Shown here: positions 31,793 to 38,564 of the stretch, piece after piece
How the letters are laid out: every line of letters begins with the position of its first letter
Numbering within the stretch: the first letter of the stretch is position 1
Source of the DNA: Candidatus Nomurabacteria bacterium
Lineage (GTDB): Bacteria; Patescibacteriota; Minisyncoccia; Phycocordibacterales; UBA9973
Length of the DNA: 64,000 bases
Reading direction: 5' to 3'
NCBI GenBank assembly: GCA_026396015.1
Contig: JAPLXP010000002.1
Coordinates: 5,502 to 69,501, forward strand
Notes under the pieces: model-generated
The model's database searches: none
Seen by the model: the letters and a program-made list of their open reading frames with translations, nothing else
What the model was told of the DNA's origin: nothing
Program-made: the position numbers and the translations under genes

Positions 31793-34162
31793 TTACACTA
31801 TATCGCAAACTCCTGCAACACAAGCCAGTTCTTTCTTTACTTCTGTCTCATCACGTAGCTCATAAGTCACAATCTTTGAGAAATCAAATTCTGGCATACG
31901 ACTTGTGAGTTCGTTGTACATCTTTTCACTGATAGCCTCGTACGGAGCTAGTTGATACACGTGATTTGAGCGTGGAAGGAATGATAGACCTCCTACGATA
32001 TCCCAGTTCTGATATAGCCAGTGTGCGACTTTGATCCATTCATTTTCCCCTACTGAGATAGTCACAGAAGGATTGTGCTCTGTATAATTTACCTTTACGA
32101 TCTTCCAGTGTTCTAGCTGATCAATAGCAGAGATGTCATCCTTACAGATAGCACCATCTGGAGCCTTCATTGGGAATTCCAATACAAAAGTATTCGCATC
32201 TTCATGAGACTGCCCTACTTCTGGATGAAATGGTACCCCTTGATCCTTCATCATCTTGAATAGTGAGTCAGTAGCAGAGATACGCACACGACGGATATAG
32301 AATGGTGAGTGACGTGGGTGCATACCTGATGCACAGTCCACAGTCTGGGACACAGTACCAGAAGGCTTTACAGCTGTGATACATGTTGACTCACTTACAC
32401 CAAATTTCTTTGCATAAATCTTGTTGATACGGATAGACTCAAGGCGGAGCTTTTCTAGCATTTTTGCATCACGAGCAAGAGTTGAGTCCCATTGTCCAGT
32501 CACAGATACACCAAGGAGTCTTTCCTCATCACAATTCTCTTTCCATTCCTTTGAAAGGTATCCAAATTTTGTAAGAGTAGATTGGTATGTACCTAGTATT
32601 GTAGCTACACGAATTTTTCTCATTAAAGTTTTTTCAGTATCCTCTGCACGAGCTACAACTTCTGAAAGATTACAGAATTGTTTTGAACGGAGGATGATCT
32701 CTCCACAAGGATTTGTACCCATCTCCCCTATAAAATCTGCAGACTTTTCTACACGTCTTTTTGGTAGTGATGTAGTTAGTGATCCACGGTTAAATATTCC
32801 ACGTTCACCTGTACCTGATTCCATCAATGCGATCCATTCTTTTAGGAATTCAGTCTCTGTTGGTTTTGTATTGTAAACTGCTGAGTTATTTGCAAGCATT
32901 CTCTGGCCTTCTGCATTCCAGAACTGACCATTCTTTGCATCACGCATATCCTGATCATCTAGATCAGATAATGATATTAGAGCTGAACGACGTACTCCTC
33001 CAGATACTACACATTCACCAATCTTACAGATGATATCGTGCGCATCGATATTTCGAAGATGTCTTCCTTGACGACGAATTATTCTCTCCCTAGTAAAACC
33101 TAGTAGGTCAATGAGTGGTTTTGGACCAGAACTCTTGCCTCCCATAATCTTAAGTCTTGCGCCAGATGGACGAAGTTGTGAGAAATCAAAATTTACATCT
33201 TCACCGTTGAACCATGTCTTCATACCAAATACGAGTGCATCTGCCCATCCTTCTTTTGTATCAGGCACTACATATGTAGGAACTTTTTTACCTGTCTGAG
33301 TTTTTATCTGAGGTAGTGATTGGATATTCTGACTCTCTACAGAGAATCCTACTCCTGTACCACACATAGAGATATAAACTATCTCTCCGAAGTCTTGGAA
33401 TTTTGAAGGTGCGATGAATGAACAGTTGTATGCACACACATTTGTCTTCTCTGCTGCAGGACCTGCAAATTGAAGTAGACGCATAGAAGGCATAGCCTCT
33501 TGCTTTAGAATACCCTCACGAACTTCTGCATACTCTTCAGCAGATAACATGTTTGAAAGTTTACCCTTCATGAATTCCATATAGCGATCTACCGTCTCGA
33601 TCCATGTCTCTCTGCGATTCTGATCCTCAATCCATTTTGCATAAGTACGGTAATAGACGAATTCAGAAAGTGGATTTCTAAAATATTGTTTACTATCATC
33701 TGCAAGTTTCTTTACGCGAGCTGGTACAGACATACTATGTGAACGGAGACGTGCACGCTCCTCACGATACAATATGTAGTGCTTTGAAGTTCTGACATAA
33801 TCAGAGAGCATCAATTCTTGTTCTACACTATCCTGTATACCCTCTACTGTAGGGATAAAGTTTTTGTATTTCTTTGCAATTTTTATCATGTCCATCAAAA
33901 CACGACTAGCCACTAGATGCGCCTCTTCTATTGATCCCTCACCTGCGGCAATCATAGCTTTATTAATAGCATTCGTAATTTTTTCAATATCAAATGCTAC
34001 AGTTGATCCGTCACGACGTTGAACACTCTTAATAAAATTATTTTTTATTTTTATTTCTGTTTTTTTAACAGGAGCTGCCTCTACTTTTTCAACAACCTCT
34101 ACTTTTTTCGCGACCACTTTCTCCCTCTTTGTAGCTTTAACTACTTTCTTTTTTGATGGCAT
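31793..34162 (-). CDS. nrdJ: class II (adenosylcobalamin-dependent) ribonucleotide reductase with N-terminal ATP-cone and a Lys/Glu/Val-rich N-terminal extension
   Basis: Active-site TNPCGEI, ATP-cone (VQRRDGSTVAFDIEKITNAINKA). Start set at MPSKKK downstream of a near-consensus promoter. Confidence 0.85.
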   Translation of the reverse strand: MPSKKKVVKATKREKVVAKKVEVVEKVEAAPVKKTEIKIKNNFIKSVQRRDGSTVAFDIEKITNAINKAMIAAGEGSIEEAHLVASRVLMDMIKIAKKYKNFIPTVEGIQDSVEQELMLSDYVRTSKHYILYREERARLRSHSMSVPARVKKLADDSKQYFRNPLSEFVYYRTYAKWIEDQNRRETWIETVDRYMEFMKGKLSNMLSAEEYAEVREGILKQEAMPSMRLLQFAGPAAEKTNVCAYNCSFIAPSKFQDFGEIVYISMCGTGVGFSVESQNIQSLPQIKTQTGKKVPTYVVPDTKEGWADALVFGMKTWFNGEDVNFDFSQLRPSGARLKIMGGKSSGPKPLIDLLGFTRERIIRRQGRHLRNIDAHDIICKIGECVVSGGVRRSALISLSDLDDQDMRDAKNGQFWNAEGQRMLANNSAVYNTKPTETEFLKEWIALMESGTGERGIFNRGSLTTSLPKRRVEKSADFIGEMGTNPCGEIILRSKQFCNLSEVVARAEDTEKTLMRKIRVATILGTYQSTLTKFGYLSKEWKENCDEERLLGVSVTGQWDSTLARDAKMLEKLRLESIRINKIYAKKFGVSESTCITAVKPSGTVSQTVDCASGMHPRHSPFYIRRVRISATDSLFKMMKDQGVPFHPEVGQSHEDANTFVLEFPMKAPDGAICKDDISAIDQLEHWKIVKVNYTEHNPSVTISVGENEWIKVAHWLYQNWDIVGGLSFLPRSNHVYQLAPYEAISEKMYNELTSRMPEFDFSKIVTYELRDETEVKKELACVAGVCDIV

Positions 34163-34265
34163 ATTTTTTCTAAAATTAATGATAAATTGCACTTTTAATA
34201 CTTTGGACTATTATTATACCGCCGTCAAAATTGCATGCCAATACCCAAAACAACCAAAAAAGCAC
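34141..34265. repeat. copy A of a 125-bp direct repeat (nrdJ 5' region including the first six codons)
   Basis: About 85 percent identical overall to 35141-35266, with a 48-nt perfect core ATACTTTGGACTATTATTATACCGCCGTCAAAATTGCATGCCAATACC. Confidence 0.85.
34204..34232 (-). promoter_or_regulatory. sigma70-type promoter of nrdJ (copy A)
   Basis: On the minus strand: -35 TTGGCA, 17-nt spacer, -10 TATAAT, about 40 nt upstream of the nrdJ ATG. Confidence 0.55.
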
Positions 34266-34385
34266 TATGTCCGACACTTCCAAAGCCGTCAACAGCTCCC
34301 CAGATAGAGCAATAAAACAAAAGTTATTTTTAGAAAAAAATTTTCAAACTAAAAAACTACAAAAAATTTCATTTTTTGTAGTTTT

Positions 34386-34826
34386 TTATCCAATTTTTTC
34401 AATTTTACAGCTCTTTACGTTATAGCTCTCATCAAAAATTGTCTCCCCTTCAAAATATTCTCTTTTCAAAAAGTATGGATACCAGGCGACATCACTGCGC
34501 CACATTTTTCCATAAGGGATCTCGTTTACATTGAACCAAAAGGGTGACATCTCATCAGTCTCTACCAATTCCCCCGTCCAATCTTGCCCTTCATATATAT
34601 GGACTTCTTTAAATGAATCAGTTAATTCGAATTTCATTCTTCCACGAAGCTCGTATTTTAATAAATCCAAACCTGATTCTTCTTTCATCTCACGCACTAG
34701 TGCCTGCTCCACCGTCTCCCCCGCGTCAACCTTGCCACCATAGCCATTGTAGTTCCCAGCGCCAAAACGAACCTTCTTCAAACCCAGCAAAAACTCATCC
34801 CCTTTTCTTAATATACAGAGAGTCAT
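34386..34826 (-). CDS. NUDIX hydrolase (MutT-like)
   Basis: Nudix box GGKVDAGETVEQALVREMKEESGL. Confidence 0.8.
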   Translation of the reverse strand: MTLCILRKGDEFLLGLKKVRFGAGNYNGYGGKVDAGETVEQALVREMKEESGLDLLKYELRGRMKFELTDSFKEVHIYEGQDWTGELVETDEMSPFWFNVNEIPYGKMWRSDVAWYPYFLKREYFEGETIFDESYNVKSCKIEKIG

Positions 34827-34866
34827 GACTTGTGTAGGTTTTTGAATGTTGTTTTGCATATAATTT

Positions 34867-35157
34867 TTAAAACAAATCTGCATGACTACCTATATCTAAT
34901 AAAATTAATATCAAAATATTTTTATCTATCTTGTAAATCAGTAGTAAGTCTGGTTTTATATGGCATTCCCTGTATCCATCATACTCCCCATGCAATTTGT
35001 GATCTTTATGCTTTAAATGTAAAGAATCACCCGAAGCTAATGTATCTAAAACTTTATCAATATCAGTAATTTTAACCTTTCCACTAGAAAGTATTTTCTC
35101 GAGAGATTTTTGATATCTTTTATTCTGAATTATTAAATATTTCTTTTTTGATGGCAT
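34867..35157 (-). CDS. yafQ: type II toxin-antitoxin system toxin, YafQ/RelE family
   Basis: C-terminal YDGYRECHIKPDLLLIYKIDKNILILILLDIGSHADLF matches the YafQ signature. The N-terminus MPSKKK is identical to nrdJ because of the duplicated 5' region. Confidence 0.75.
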   Translation of the reverse strand: MPSKKKYLIIQNKRYQKSLEKILSSGKVKITDIDKVLDTLASGDSLHLKHKDHKLHGEYDGYRECHIKPDLLLIYKIDKNILILILLDIGSHADLF

Positions 35158-35266
35158 AGTTTTTTATTGTTAATGATAATGTATCCTCCGATACTTTGGA
35201 CTATTATTATACCGCCGTCAAAATTGCATGCCAATACCTAAAACGGACAAAAAACACTATGTCGGA
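35141..35266. repeat. copy B of the 125-bp direct repeat, between the dinJ-like and yafQ-like genes
   Basis: Carries the same -35 TTGGCA / -10 TATAAT promoter (35205-35233) and CTTTTTTGATGGCAT (MPSKKK) start as copy A. Confidence 0.85.
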
Positions 35267-35273
35267 CACATTT

Positions 35274-35549
35274 CTATTTATAAAAATCTTTTCCAATTAT
35301 ATCTTCATGCATTTCACGAGCACTATTATATCTTTTCCCATTCTTAAGAGCATCCTCCACTTCCCTATCCCATTCTGCACGAATAGCAGCAGGATTCTTA
35401 GTCGGCTTGAAAGGTATACCATTCTCATTTACAACTTGATTTAAAAACAATTTAATTCCAGACGACAAATCCAGACCCATAGACTCGAGAGTCTTTTGAG
35501 CTTTATCTTTAGTCTTTTTTTCTATTCTTATATTAATTGTTGTATTCAT
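35274..35549 (-). CDS. dinJ: type II antitoxin, DinJ/RelB family
   Basis: MNTTINIRIEKKTKDKAQKTLESMGLDLSSGIKLFLNQVVNENGIPF matches the RelB/DinJ ribbon-helix-helix antitoxins. Confidence 0.75.
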   Translation of the reverse strand: MNTTINIRIEKKTKDKAQKTLESMGLDLSSGIKLFLNQVVNENGIPFKPTKNPAAIRAEWDREVEDALKNGKRYNSAREMHEDIIGKDFYK

Positions 35550-35603
35550 ATTACTAGTATATACAATGTACATACATTGTCAAGACATTACTCATGTATA
35601 ACA

Positions 35604-35629
35604 AAAACCACCCAGTTGGGTGGTTTTTG
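35604..35629 (-). terminator. fusA terminator
   Basis: AAAAACCACCC-AGTT-GGGTGGTTTTT hairpin about 100 nt after the fusA stop. Confidence 0.6.
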
Positions 35630-35728
35630 TCTAATTTTGTAAATTATTTTCTTGCTTCAATAATACTTGTCGCCATTCCAAAGGAAAGAGTACTTCCTAC
35701 GGGACAGACATTTTGAGGTGTGAGTATA

Positions 35729-37870
35729 TTACTTACGTGCCTCAATAATTGCTGTCGCAACGTTCTGGGGTACTATGTCGTAACGTAGGAATTCCATAGT
35801 GAATCCTGCGCGACCCTCTGTCATAGAACGTAGAGTTGTCATATAACCGAACATTTCAGATAGTGGAACGACAGCTTTCACTGCTTGGTTCATACCACGT
35901 TGTTCCATACCTTCGATCAATCCACGCTTTGAAGATAGACTTCCTGTCACATCTCCCATGAATTTATCTGGAGTCACAACTTCAACATTCATCATAGGTT
36001 CGAGTATTACTGGGCGAGCCATCTTACATGCATCCTGGACTGCCATACTAGCTGCGATCTTGAAAGCCATTTCGTTTGAGTCCACATCGTGGTAACTTCC
36101 ATCCCATAGCTCGACAGATACATTTTCCAATTTGAATCCTGCGAGTACTCCACGATCAAGACCTTCTTTGAATCCTTTTTCACAAGCTGGAATATATTCT
36201 TGTGGAATAGCACCTCCCTTGATTGTGTTAACAAATTCAAATCCTTTTTCACGCTTTGTATTTCTTGGTAGATCTTCGATTGCAATACTCTGATCCATTG
36301 GCTTGATGCGAATCTTTACGTGACCATAGTTTCCACGTCCTCCTGATTGCTTGATGTACTTACCTTCTACACTTGCCTCACCTGTGATTGTCTCACGGTA
36401 TGCAACCTGTGGCTTACCTACATTTGTCTCCACTGCGAATTCACGCTTCATACGATCAACAATGATTTCAAGGTGGAGTTCTCCCATACCTGCGATTATT
36501 GTCTCGTTTGTCTCCTGATCTGTAGCAACACGGAATGTAGGATCTTCTTGTGCAAGACGATTCAATGCCATACCCATTTTCTCTTGGTCAGCTTTTGTCT
36601 TTGGTTCTACACGTAGAGAGATAACTGGCTCTGGGAAGATGATACGTACTAGCTCTGCTGGTGCATTTTCATCACAAAGAGTATCTGAAGTTATAGTATC
36701 TTTCAATCCTACTGCAGCTGCGATTTCTCCAGCGTACACCTTCTTTACTTCTTCACGATCATTGGCATGCATACGCAAGATTCGTCCGATACGTTCCTTG
36801 TTTCTTGTACGAGGGTTGTATACATATGAACCTGCAGTTACAGATCCAGAGTAGACACGGAAGAATATAATCTGTCCTACGAATGGGTCAGTAGCAATTT
36901 TGAATGCTAGAGCTGAAAATGGTGCATCATCAGATGCCTCACGTACTAGTGGCTCGTCTGTATTTGGATCGATACCTGTGATTGGAGGAATATCTGTAGG
37001 AGCTGGTAGATAGTCTACAACAGCGTCAAGCACTAGTTGAACTCCCTTATTCTTTAGAGCTGATCCAGCGAATACTGGGAATACATCGTTGGCGATAACT
37101 GCCTTTCTCATCAATTTCTTCAAAGTAGCATAATCAGGAATCTTTCCTTCAAAGTATGCATTCATCACAGCTTCATCTTGCTCTACGATCTTTTCGATCA
37201 ATTCTGCATGATATTTTTCTGCTTCTGCTTTATATTCTTCTGGAATTTCCTTTTCAATAACTTTGTTACCCATCTCCCCTTCAAAGTAGAAAGCCTTCAT
37301 CTTCAATAGGTCGATCACACCTTCGTGATGCTCTTCAAGACCAATTGGGATTTGCATACGGATAGCTTTTTTAGTAAGTCTATCTAGGATAGTTTTATAT
37401 GAGTGCTCAAAAGATGCGCCTGTACGGTCAAGCTTGTTTACGAAACAAATACGTGGCACATTGGCCTCGTCAGCATAACGCCAGTTTGTCTCTGATTGTG
37501 GTTCTACACCAGCAACTCCATCGAATACAACTACAGCACCATCGAGTACGCGAAGTGAGCGCTTCACCTCCACAGTAAAGTCGATGTGACCTGGTGTGTC
37601 GATAATGTTGAAGCGGTGCTTCTTGTTCTTGTCGCCTGGTGCGTATGTCGGTGTCCAGAAACATGTAACAGCAGCAGATGTGATAGTGATACCACGCTCT
37701 CGCTCTTGTTCCATCCAGTCTGTTGTCGTCTCGCCATCATGCACTTCACCTATCTTGTGTGATACACCAGTGTAAAACAATACACGCTCTGTTGTTGTAG
37801 TCTTACCCGCATCAATGTGGGCAATAATACCTATATTTCTAACTTTTTCTAAAGGATAATCTCTTTCCAT
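35729..37870 (-). CDS. fusA: elongation factor G
   Basis: G-domain [21 protein letters not shown]; full five-domain length. Start set at MERDYPL; the longer ORF's N-terminal extension is spurious. Confidence 0.95.
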
Positions 37871-38012
37871 ATATATAAATCTTACTAATAAAATAAAAAA
37901 CCCCGTAAGGCATTTGTCCCTAGAATATACCACATATGGACTTTTTTGCAACAAAAAAGTGCTATTTATTTTTTGTAAATAAACAGCACTTTGAGCTACT
38001 TTTTTAGAATAC

Positions 38013-38564
38013 TTAACAAGTGATAATGAAATGTCGGGCAGATTCTTCAGAGAGGGCTTGTTTGCGTCTGAATTCTCTACGGAATTCCATAAGTTCATCA
38101 TTCATCTCTTCCATTTCTTTAAAGAATTTAGGGTCTGATTCATAAACCTTACCATTGTATATGAAGATTGAATTTTTTGGCTTCTTAGATTTTTTTAATC
38201 CTTCTTTGAGCCAATAATTAATTGATTCCTCAGCCATTGGTACGATCTTTTCAATGGCATTGTTGTCGAGATCTTTTTTTGAATTAAATTCAATTAACCC
38301 ACTGGTTTTTTGAGAAAATACATTATTAATCAATTCCCCTATCTTTTGGATCTGTTCAAATTCGTTTTCAGGAAAATCGATAGTTTTCAAATCAAACAAG
38401 GTGTGACCTATAAGACTAGCAGTTGCCCAAATATTTTTACCTCTTTTTTGAGGGTCAAGATTACTCCTCGAGCAAACTTTGACCAATTCATCATGTGTAA
38501 GCATTTTTTTAAGATTTATTTTGTTTTTCTTCAGATTACCACTTTCAGGTTTTTTGTCAAACAA
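38013..38564 (-). CDS. hypothetical protein (183 aa) inserted between rpsG and fusA
   Basis: No recognisable family; sits just after an intrinsic terminator, so the true start may be the internal MLTHDEL. Confidence 0.5.

Follow-up and report, generated by a model that had tools for sequence, protein, structure and literature searches.

The closest described relatives of the locus examined here are the canonical dinJ-yafQ toxin-antitoxin systems, exemplified by that of Escherichia coli and by the HP0892/HP0894 pair of Helicobacter pylori. The locus is situated on the minus strand of a window of 64,000 nucleotides (nt), which belongs to a contig of a metagenome-assembled genome (MAG) of Candidatus Nomurabacteria, an uncultivated lineage. 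It shares with the canonical systems the protein families, the position of the antitoxin gene ahead of the toxin gene and a near-consensus promoter with an inverted-repeat operator. It differs from them in that the overlap between the two genes is replaced by a gap of 116 nt (counted as 117 bp in the initial annotation) containing a foreign promoter and leader, in that residues 1-6 of the toxin are derived from a ribonucleotide reductase, in that the antitoxin tail is shortened by four residues, and in that a NUDIX hydrolase gene is presumably co-transcribed behind the toxin gene.

Toxin-antitoxin systems with additional promoters have been described. In axe-txe of Enterococcus faecium, a toxin transcript originates at an internal promoter located within the antitoxin gene (PMC3760812), antitoxin-specific promoters and transcriptional uncoupling have been reported for mqsRA (PMC6918082), and toxTA of Haemophilus influenzae is competence-regulated (PMC6957337). 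As in axe-txe, a second promoter downstream of the main autoregulated one could shift the toxin:antitoxin ratio at the present locus; the axe-txe promoter, however, lies within the antitoxin coding sequence as a native design, whereas the one observed here is a recognisable and putatively active duplicate of a housekeeping promoter together with its translation start. As in mqsRA and toxTA, the expression of toxin and antitoxin at this locus would no longer depend strictly on a single shared autoregulated promoter, and a host signal would be imposed on them. In those systems the extra promoter serves the whole pair or the antitoxin, whereas here it would serve the toxin and NUDIX genes, having arisen via segmental duplication with a chimeric N-terminus. 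The pair is a DinJ-YafQ type II module by protein content and is functionally closest to systems with extra promoters.

We propose, with a probability of roughly 0.6, that a copy of the 5' region of nrdJ, the ribonucleotide reductase gene further downstream, has rewired the expression of yafQ and of the adjacent NUDIX gene, a reading in which the history of the locus is reconstructed from its relatives and its present mode of working is predicted. Comparative sequence analysis shows how the locus is built, in which direction the copying went, where the insertion took place, that NUDIX lost its promoter and that the genes are intact. All relevant genes and features are located on the minus strand, in the 5' to 3' order fusA, hairpin hp1, dinJ, repeat copy B, yafQ, NUDIX, hairpin hp2, repeat copy A and nrdJ.

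Copy A (34145..34277, 133 nt) and copy B (35140..35269, 130 nt) were shown to match at 113 of 133 aligned columns (85%), with a longest exact match of 48 nt (34198-34245 in copy A and 35191-35238 in copy B). These values confirm the ~85% identity and the perfect 48-nt core noted initially; the location of the repeat was likewise correct, except for its upstream boundary, as the repeat reaches ~12 nt further upstream than had been indicated. Outside the core, identity between the copies is 76%, and the 60-nt flanks on either side of copy A and copy B exhibit 25-27% identity, which corresponds to background. A 44-nt core pattern with up to three mismatches was found at two sites only in the 64 kb and at none in 100 shuffled sequences, which places the similarity far beyond chance. 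Two copies in 64 kb, sharp boundaries and a single copy at the orthologous ancestral site characterise the element as a segmental direct repeat. A dispersed promoter cassette was also considered and was excluded, as the window holds two copies and each relative one, and no other open reading frame (ORF) starts with MPSKK.

Both copies carry the sequence TTGGCA-17 nt-TATAAT, which, as described in the initial annotation, is near-consensus (11 of 12 positions of the σ70-type hexamers), with the -35 and -10 hexamers at 34236-34241 and 34213-34218 in copy A (spacer TGCAATTTTGACGGCGG) and at 35229-35234 and 35206-35211 in copy B. A leader of ~42-44 nt follows, and then the start ATGCCATCAAAAAAGAAA, encoding MPSKKK as the first six residues. 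In copy A these elements represent the native core promoter, leader and first six codons of nrdJ, while copy B comprises the promoter, the leader, an ATG and codons 2-6 in front of the toxin gene. Consensus hexamer matches alone do not demonstrate promoter function, and promoter-like sites across the region were not in excess (8 found versus 8.1 expected from shuffled sequences).

The families assigned previously to nrdJ and to the dinJ-like and yafQ-like genes agree with both Pfam and NCBIfam. The nrdJ gene (31793..34162) encodes a class II (B12-dependent) ribonucleotide reductase with a Lys-rich N-terminal tail, the product consisting of ATP-cone and class II ribonucleotide reductase domains in both databases. 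The N-terminus of NrdJ was found to be exactly MPSKKK in 41 of its 120 best homologues and to follow the pattern M-x-x-K-K/N in 115 of them. Conversely, among the 120 best YafQ homologues PSKKK occurs in the window's own protein only (0 of the 119 others), most others starting with MY or MK; YafQ proteins that natively begin with MPSKKK, which would have offered a different explanation of the repeat, were thus not encountered in this set. The same promoter, leader and start were observed upstream of nrdJ in every related locus recovered (L002, L003/L004, L005/L006, L010, L011/L013, L012, L015, L020/L021 and L023/L024), each of which has a single copy of the repeat, and most of which lack a nearby toxin-antitoxin pair. 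Because MPSKKK and the promoter are widespread at nrdJ and this N-terminus is absent from the 119 other YafQ homologues, copy A is native and copy B is derived from an nrdJ 5' region. The conservation at nrdJ, the YafQ homologues and the gene overlaps described below support the view that YafQ owes its start codon and its first six residues to copy B. A scan of a genome collection with a 22-nt spacer-containing core returned no match, and a scan with an invariant 23-mer returned two species representatives; a metagenome scan yielded three loci, one of which (L014) is a chance match.

To place the insertion, the toxin and antitoxin genes were compared with their relatives. The chimeric yafQ gene (34867..35157), in which six nrdJ-derived codons are followed by a YafQ/RelE-family mRNA interferase with intact conserved residues, matches Pfam YafQ_toxin (6.6e-27), and its product aligns end to end with the Protein Data Bank sequences of HP0892, HP0894 and E. 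coli YafQ. The upstream gene, with a longest ORF at 35274..35573 and a probable start at 35549 (91 residues), encodes a RelB/DinJ-type ribbon-helix-helix antitoxin (Pfam RelB, 1.9e-12; TIGR02384, 3.1e-19; both above cut-offs). It is preceded by the sequence TTGACA-16 nt-TATACT (35556..35583), identical in L002, which contains the inverted repeat ACAATGTA-TG-TACATTGT (35563-35580), a probable operator. The closest YafQ (P0002, locus L002) is 86% identical and starts with MQIFPNKKYQ. An ancestral dinJ-yafQ arrangement, for which the initial annotation had advised searching, was indeed found: in the three closest pairs (L002, L025/L026 and L027) the two genes overlap by exactly 20 nt with no promoter between them, whereas in the window the gap holds the promoter-like copy and the tight coupling or overlap typical of the type II family is absent.

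DinJ homologues end in ..GKKxYAxxSK*, whereas DinJ of the window ends in ..GKDFYK*, four residues shorter; when the 5' end of yafQ is read in the former dinJ frame, the missing tail can still be recognised as EIFNNSE* (35120..35143), marking the former overlap. The 20-nt overlap in relatives, the shortened DinJ and this relic show that copy B was inserted in the dinJ/yafQ overlap, directly after a conserved Tyr codon. The insertion destroyed the native yafQ ATG (within TATG), removed the four DinJ residues and joined the first six nrdJ codons, in frame, to the remainder of yafQ. At the right junction the sequence is A-rich (..CAAAAAAGAAA|TAT..); TAT is found on both sides of the insert and a possible microhomology AAAAAAGAAA/TAT is present, features that fit either a microhomology-mediated duplication with a later deletion or a template switch. 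The precise positions of the breaks are ambiguous, owing to TAT on both sides and to AAATAGAA at the left-hand side, to which no origin was assigned; the ATG at the left edge of copy B also occurs in the nrdJ upstream region of L002.

The NUDIX (MutT-like) hydrolase gene (34386..34859), whose domain is clear (Pfam, 3.3e-14), begins 7 nt beyond the yafQ stop; behind it stands hp2 (34350..34388), an 18-bp perfect stem with a subsequent T run that is conserved upstream of nrdJ in relatives. Because of the 7-nt spacing and the position of hp2, yafQ and NUDIX appear to form one unit ending at hp2. The initial annotation had placed the toxin alone behind the new promoter and had missed both the NUDIX gene and the destruction of its own promoter, which changes the likely beneficiary of copy B. 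In locus L015, whose NrdJ is 95.6% identical (754/789), the gene order is rpsL-rpsG-x-fusA-hp1-NUDIX-hp2-nrdJ with no toxin-antitoxin pair; the order NUDIX-hp2-nrdJ is also present in L010, L011/L013, L020/L021 and L023/L024, and fusA is followed by NUDIX and nrdJ in L015, L021 and L023. Compared with L015, the ratio of non-synonymous to synonymous substitution rates (dN/dS) is 0.065 for NUDIX and 0.04 for nrdJ (synonymous distance, dS, 0.75).

In these relatives, TGTTATAAT (L015, L020 and L021) or TGTTATACT (L023) lies 6 nt ahead of the NUDIX ATG and constitutes a putative extended -10 element, implying a leaderless NUDIX mRNA. Since a -10 box lies 6 nt before the ATG both of dinJ in the window and of NUDIX in the relatives, leaderless mRNAs are suggested for both genes, and that of dinJ looks leaderless on this basis. 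In the window, TGTTATAC (35603-35596), which comparison with L015, L020, L021 and L023 identifies as the left remnant of the ancestral leaderless promoter, is retained just after hp1 (35601..35630), the terminator hairpin behind fusA that is also kept in L005, L015, L020 and L021. The dinJ promoter follows directly, and the yafQ stop region stands where the old NUDIX -10 was. The remnant on the far side and the replacement of the old -10 by the yafQ stop region show that the dinJ-yafQ cassette landed in the NUDIX promoter and disabled it. In L002 (620-650), which carries the same cassette, and in L012 (about 540-570), NUDIX was deleted, with its last 15-25 nt left before hp2; the window lineage, unlike these two, kept NUDIX and gained copy B. 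The fusA-NUDIX-nrdJ interval is, by these comparisons, an apparent rearrangement hotspot. A search for homologues of the NUDIX protein, in which the context of the three best matches was inspected, revealed no intermediate with dinJ-yafQ-NUDIX and no copy B.

Comparison with the relatives yields the following history. The ancestral order in this Nomurabacteria group was rpsL-rpsG-fusA-hp1-NUDIX-hp2-nrdJ, with NUDIX expressed from its own leaderless extended -10 promoter, into which a dinJ-yafQ type II cassette with the usual 20-nt overlap then landed. Later, ~130 nt of the nrdJ 5' region, comprising the core promoter, an unstructured A/U-rich leader and six codons, were copied into the dinJ/yafQ overlap, likely by microhomology-mediated tandem duplication and deletion or by a template switch, giving rise to a shortened dinJ, the copy B promoter, MPSKKK-yafQ, NUDIX and hp2. 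In the resulting arrangement, yafQ and NUDIX would be transcribed from an nrdJ-type σ70-like promoter as well as by transcripts that start at the autoregulated dinJ promoter and read through, and yafQ would be translated from the nrdJ initiation region and no longer by coupling to dinJ. The most plausible benefit is that NUDIX expression was restored and coordinated with that of ribonucleotide reductase, in which case the NUDIX enzyme may sanitise the dNTP pool, while the toxin would ride along, still neutralised by DinJ.

Promoter capture by small segmental (tandem) duplication is a general mechanism in bacterial genome evolution, and the present case resembles it in the direct repeats ~1 kb apart, the in-frame novel junction in an A-rich stretch and the apparent gain of a promoter by downstream genes. 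It differs in that the repeat is only ~130 nt long, which implies that the intervening copy was deleted or that a template switch occurred, and in that two nrdJ-leader alleles are combined as a mosaic in copy B, implying gene conversion or inter-lineage recombination. The copy B leader hairpin CGGAGGATACATTAT (type-2; stem GUAUC/GAUAC) is identical (15/15) to that of the nrdJ leaders of L015, L010, L011 and L012 and has one mismatch to that of L003. Copy A, L002, L023 and L005 carry T(G/A)(G/A)AAGTGC.ATTTAT instead, and L020/L021 a third hairpin, GUGCAG/CUGCAC. In a 13-nt variable part of the promoter spacer, by contrast, copy B agrees fully with copy A and L023, and L002 deviates at 2 of 13 positions. 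Copy B thus combines the promoter core of copy A with a leader hairpin allele of other lineages. The initial suggestion of a recent promoter capture or gene conversion is therefore upheld as to the nrdJ origin, but not as a simple recent copy of present-day copy A. Two origins of the mosaic are possible among lineages that are about equidistant (dS 0.75-1.0) and visibly recombinant: copy B may have been copied from an older copy A with a type-2 leader, the copy A leader being later replaced by recombination, or it may have been seeded from another nrdJ allele, its core being later homogenised with copy A by gene conversion.

At one position near the 5' end of the nrdJ leader, three unrelated short hairpins occur across lineages, namely UCCAA/UUGGA, GUAUC/GAUAC and GUGCAG/CUGCAC (34185-34205 and 35178-35198 in the window; L002, L015 and L020), which suggests that the 5'-proximal stem itself is the conserved feature; in copy A this stem is disrupted (UUGGA to UUAAA). 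A separate candidate RNA structure, pairing the -35 region TGGCAT with AUGCCA and CUUUUUUG with CAAAAAAG, emerged from the consensus fold of the leader and upstream region and was rejected as coincidence, as it exhibits no covariation and is broken in two lineages. The alignment fold of the same region contained no compensatory pairs. Rfam matches at gathering score were tRNAs only, and permissive thresholds gave just chance-level matches in 34050-35650.

The region that was partly copied shows far less divergence than synonymous sites do: between hp2 and the promoter, lineages differ by 14-18%, compared with 47-55% at such sites. This conservation is evident over ~200 nt upstream of nrdJ (34213-34340 in the window and orthologues in L003-L024). 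A 23-nt block, GGTATAATAATAGTCCAAAGTAT, comprising the -10 and the first transcribed bases, is invariant in the nrdJ-upstream sequences of 13 aligned relatives, the distant outgroup L007 excepted, while in the comparable 13-nt part of the -35/-10 spacer 7-8 of 13 positions differ between most lineages. In copy B both hexamers, their spacing and the invariant block are intact, the 48-nt core has 0 changes, and one conserved base has been lost (GTGCTTTTTT to GTG-TTTTTT). A perfect core beside 24% divergence in the rest of the copy points to selection on the copy B promoter, gene conversion, or both. NrdR-repressed promoters contain two 16-bp boxes (C4, A6, A8, T9, T11, G13) spaced 15-16 bp or 26-27 bp apart (PMC13584703); no such pair with an allowed linker was detected in copy A, copy B, L005, L010 or L015, and single NrdR-like sites matching 5 of 6 positions occurred at background frequency (6.4 per kb per strand).

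The copied segment may also bring its own means of translation initiation. The surroundings of the AUG are predicted to be unpaired in both copies, and a Shine-Dalgarno-like motif was found upstream of only 2 of the 34 window ORFs longer than 200 residues (a crude scan using the first ATG). As the genome rarely uses Shine-Dalgarno sites, the leader and the A-rich first codons plausibly act jointly as a complete initiation signal, and the transfer of six codons along with the promoter would thereby be accounted for.

Several points weigh against the proposed rewiring. The transcription start sites are predictions, as are the activity and the regulation of the copy B promoter, and a new promoter upstream of the toxin gene, rather than directly before NUDIX, is an awkward way to rescue the latter. 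Copy B lacks ~100 nt of conserved sequence found upstream of copy A, including a second, conserved promoter-like site (TTGACG-17 nt-CATAGT, 34264..34292) whose -35 was not copied, so that copy B may be weak or may not be regulated like nrdJ. The mosaic requires a second event, in which the core underwent gene conversion or the leader of copy A was exchanged at a later time. As to the genes served, NUDIX scores 43.7-43.9 bits against MutT models with cut-offs of 97.9-148, i.e. below the equivalog cut-off, which bears on its substrate, and its deletion in L002 and L012 indicates that it is dispensable in some lineages. Finally, the four residues missing from the DinJ tail may affect the neutralisation of the toxin.

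The alternative that survives best, although it is itself improbable, is that copy B is transcriptionally irrelevant and merely provides a spacer and a new translation start, so that yafQ and NUDIX are expressed from the autoregulated dinJ promoter alone, as a conventional operon minus translational coupling. Terminator prediction revealed no terminator-like site in the stretch from dinJ to copy B; transcripts from the dinJ promoter should therefore still extend into yafQ, and the earlier statement that the toxin is independent of antitoxin autoregulation is on this ground overstated. The hexamer matches are no evidence of function either, and the part of the conserved nrdJ control region missing from copy B might be needed. 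Against such irrelevance, however, the -35, the 17-nt spacer and the -10 of copy B are identical to those of the native nrdJ promoter and fit the consensus at 11 of 12 positions, the core is unchanged at 48 of 48 positions despite the divergence of the remainder, and the spacer is the same in both copies although it varies freely between lineages.

Whether NUDIX or the toxin was the target of selection leads to a further alternative, which we consider unlikely, namely that YafQ serves as a growth brake induced together with ribonucleotide reductase (for instance, under replication or dNTP stress), with NUDIX as a passenger. The promoter stands directly before yafQ, and the toxin is under purifying selection. 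E. coli dinJ-yafQ is LexA-controlled and DNA-damage inducible, which offers a precedent for a link with DNA stress. Toxin-antitoxin systems wired into a host regulon are also known, as illustrated by H. influenzae toxTA (PMC6957337). On the other hand, no NrdR box pair was detected, more toxin without more antitoxin would be risky, and the old and conserved NUDIX-nrdJ synteny, combined with the loss of the NUDIX promoter to the cassette, provides a simpler rationale. A broader version, in which copy B is active with nrdJ-type regulation and in which both YafQ as growth brake and NUDIX as pool cleaner now belong to the regulon for dNTP supply in a member of the Patescibacteria with a reduced genome and are switched on together with DNA-precursor synthesis, nrdJ encoding the only ribonucleotide reductase of the cell, is similarly doubtful; if true, it would represent a natural domestication of a toxin by capture of a promoter and translation start.

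It had also been suggested that the event inactivated the module, in which case the cassette would be decaying and the rearrangement would be a scar, neutral or mildly harmful, with no active toxin and no co-regulation. Chromosomal toxin-antitoxin cassettes often decay, the native yafQ ATG and translational coupling are gone, DinJ has lost four C-terminal residues, and the sister lineage L002 illustrates how prone the locus is to deletion. Both ORFs are nevertheless full length, with an in-frame fusion behind a good ATG. All 18 invariant alignment columns of YafQ are present (including D52, R63, E64, C65, H66 and H92), as is the conserved motif KDH..G..RECH.KPD..GSH..LF. In comparison with L002, dN/dS is 0.09 for yafQ (dS 0.80) and 0.10 for dinJ (dS 0.78), values that average both lineages and the time before and after the insertion, and the arrangement is common to at least two strains. 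Because the invariant YafQ residues are present and dN/dS is ~0.1, decay seems quite unlikely, and toxin and antitoxin look intact.

The initial annotation had further called for a check on assembly artefacts, and Logan contigs of four sequencing runs from two projects were compared with the window, namely SRR20698644 and SRR20698640 (0 mismatches) and ERR12084918 and ERR12084942 (each with 2 mismatches per 0.9 kb). In all four runs, contigs with fusA/dinJ and the left part of copy B end inside the 48-nt core, and another contig runs from the copy B core through the MPSKKK-yafQ junction and NUDIX-hp2 to the copy A core. All four distinct flanks occur in reads of both projects, among them the in-frame MPSKKK|YLIIQ junction and the site at which copy B follows the dinJ stop. 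Contig breaks at the core are the behaviour expected of a true repeat, while the pairing of the flanks across the core is taken from the deposited MAG assembly. The 1005-nt Logan contig with yafQ-NUDIX (L001) has the same 12 nt at 1-12 and 994-1005, inside the repeat core; on its own, the short-read graph is therefore also consistent with a circle of 993 bp, possibly one excised when copies A and B recombined. A strain bubble or repeat mis-join, with an MPSKKK-yafQ chimera present in no cell, could be suspected from the MAG origin of the window, the breakage of every short-read contig within the core and that permitted circle, but it is highly improbable given the recovery of all four junction flanks in independent assemblies, the distinct strain represented by the second project, the differences between the copies at 20 of 133 aligned columns (which argue against a collapsed duplicate) and the ease with which ordinary reads span 48 nt.

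If the proposed rewiring is correct, the promoter, leader and first codons of an essential gene were copied as a unit that restarted the expression of other genes, a datable natural experiment of which the ancestral state, the sister state (with NUDIX deleted) and the derived state are all visible in public assemblies. A toxin gene that has apparently lost translational coupling and acquired a housekeeping-type promoter, with both toxin and antitoxin genes under purifying selection, bears on how much imbalance such a pair tolerates. For the Patescibacteria, an nrdJ control region conserved far above synonymous sites and containing no known regulator motif among those searched for is of interest in its own right. 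As a local rearrangement in a single lineage, the locus is of modest general importance.

Minor observations concern the fusA side of the interval. In L023 (1705-2919), two genes of 273 and 123 residues are present between fusA and NUDIX. The longest fusA ORF of the window (35729-38101, 790 residues) carries an N-terminal extension of ~75 residues relative to its relatives (713-748 residues), so its real start is probably internal. It overlaps a 183-residue ORF (38013-38564) between rpsG and fusA, whose counterpart in L015 has 160 residues and no Pfam hit. Just past the true fusA stop (35729), on the minus strand, lies a degenerate second copy of the fusA 3' coding end (..ATSIIEARK*, 35645-35728), which is similar to the fusA end of L015, split by ~32 nt, and seems to be left over from a previous recombination or gene replacement at the end of fusA.

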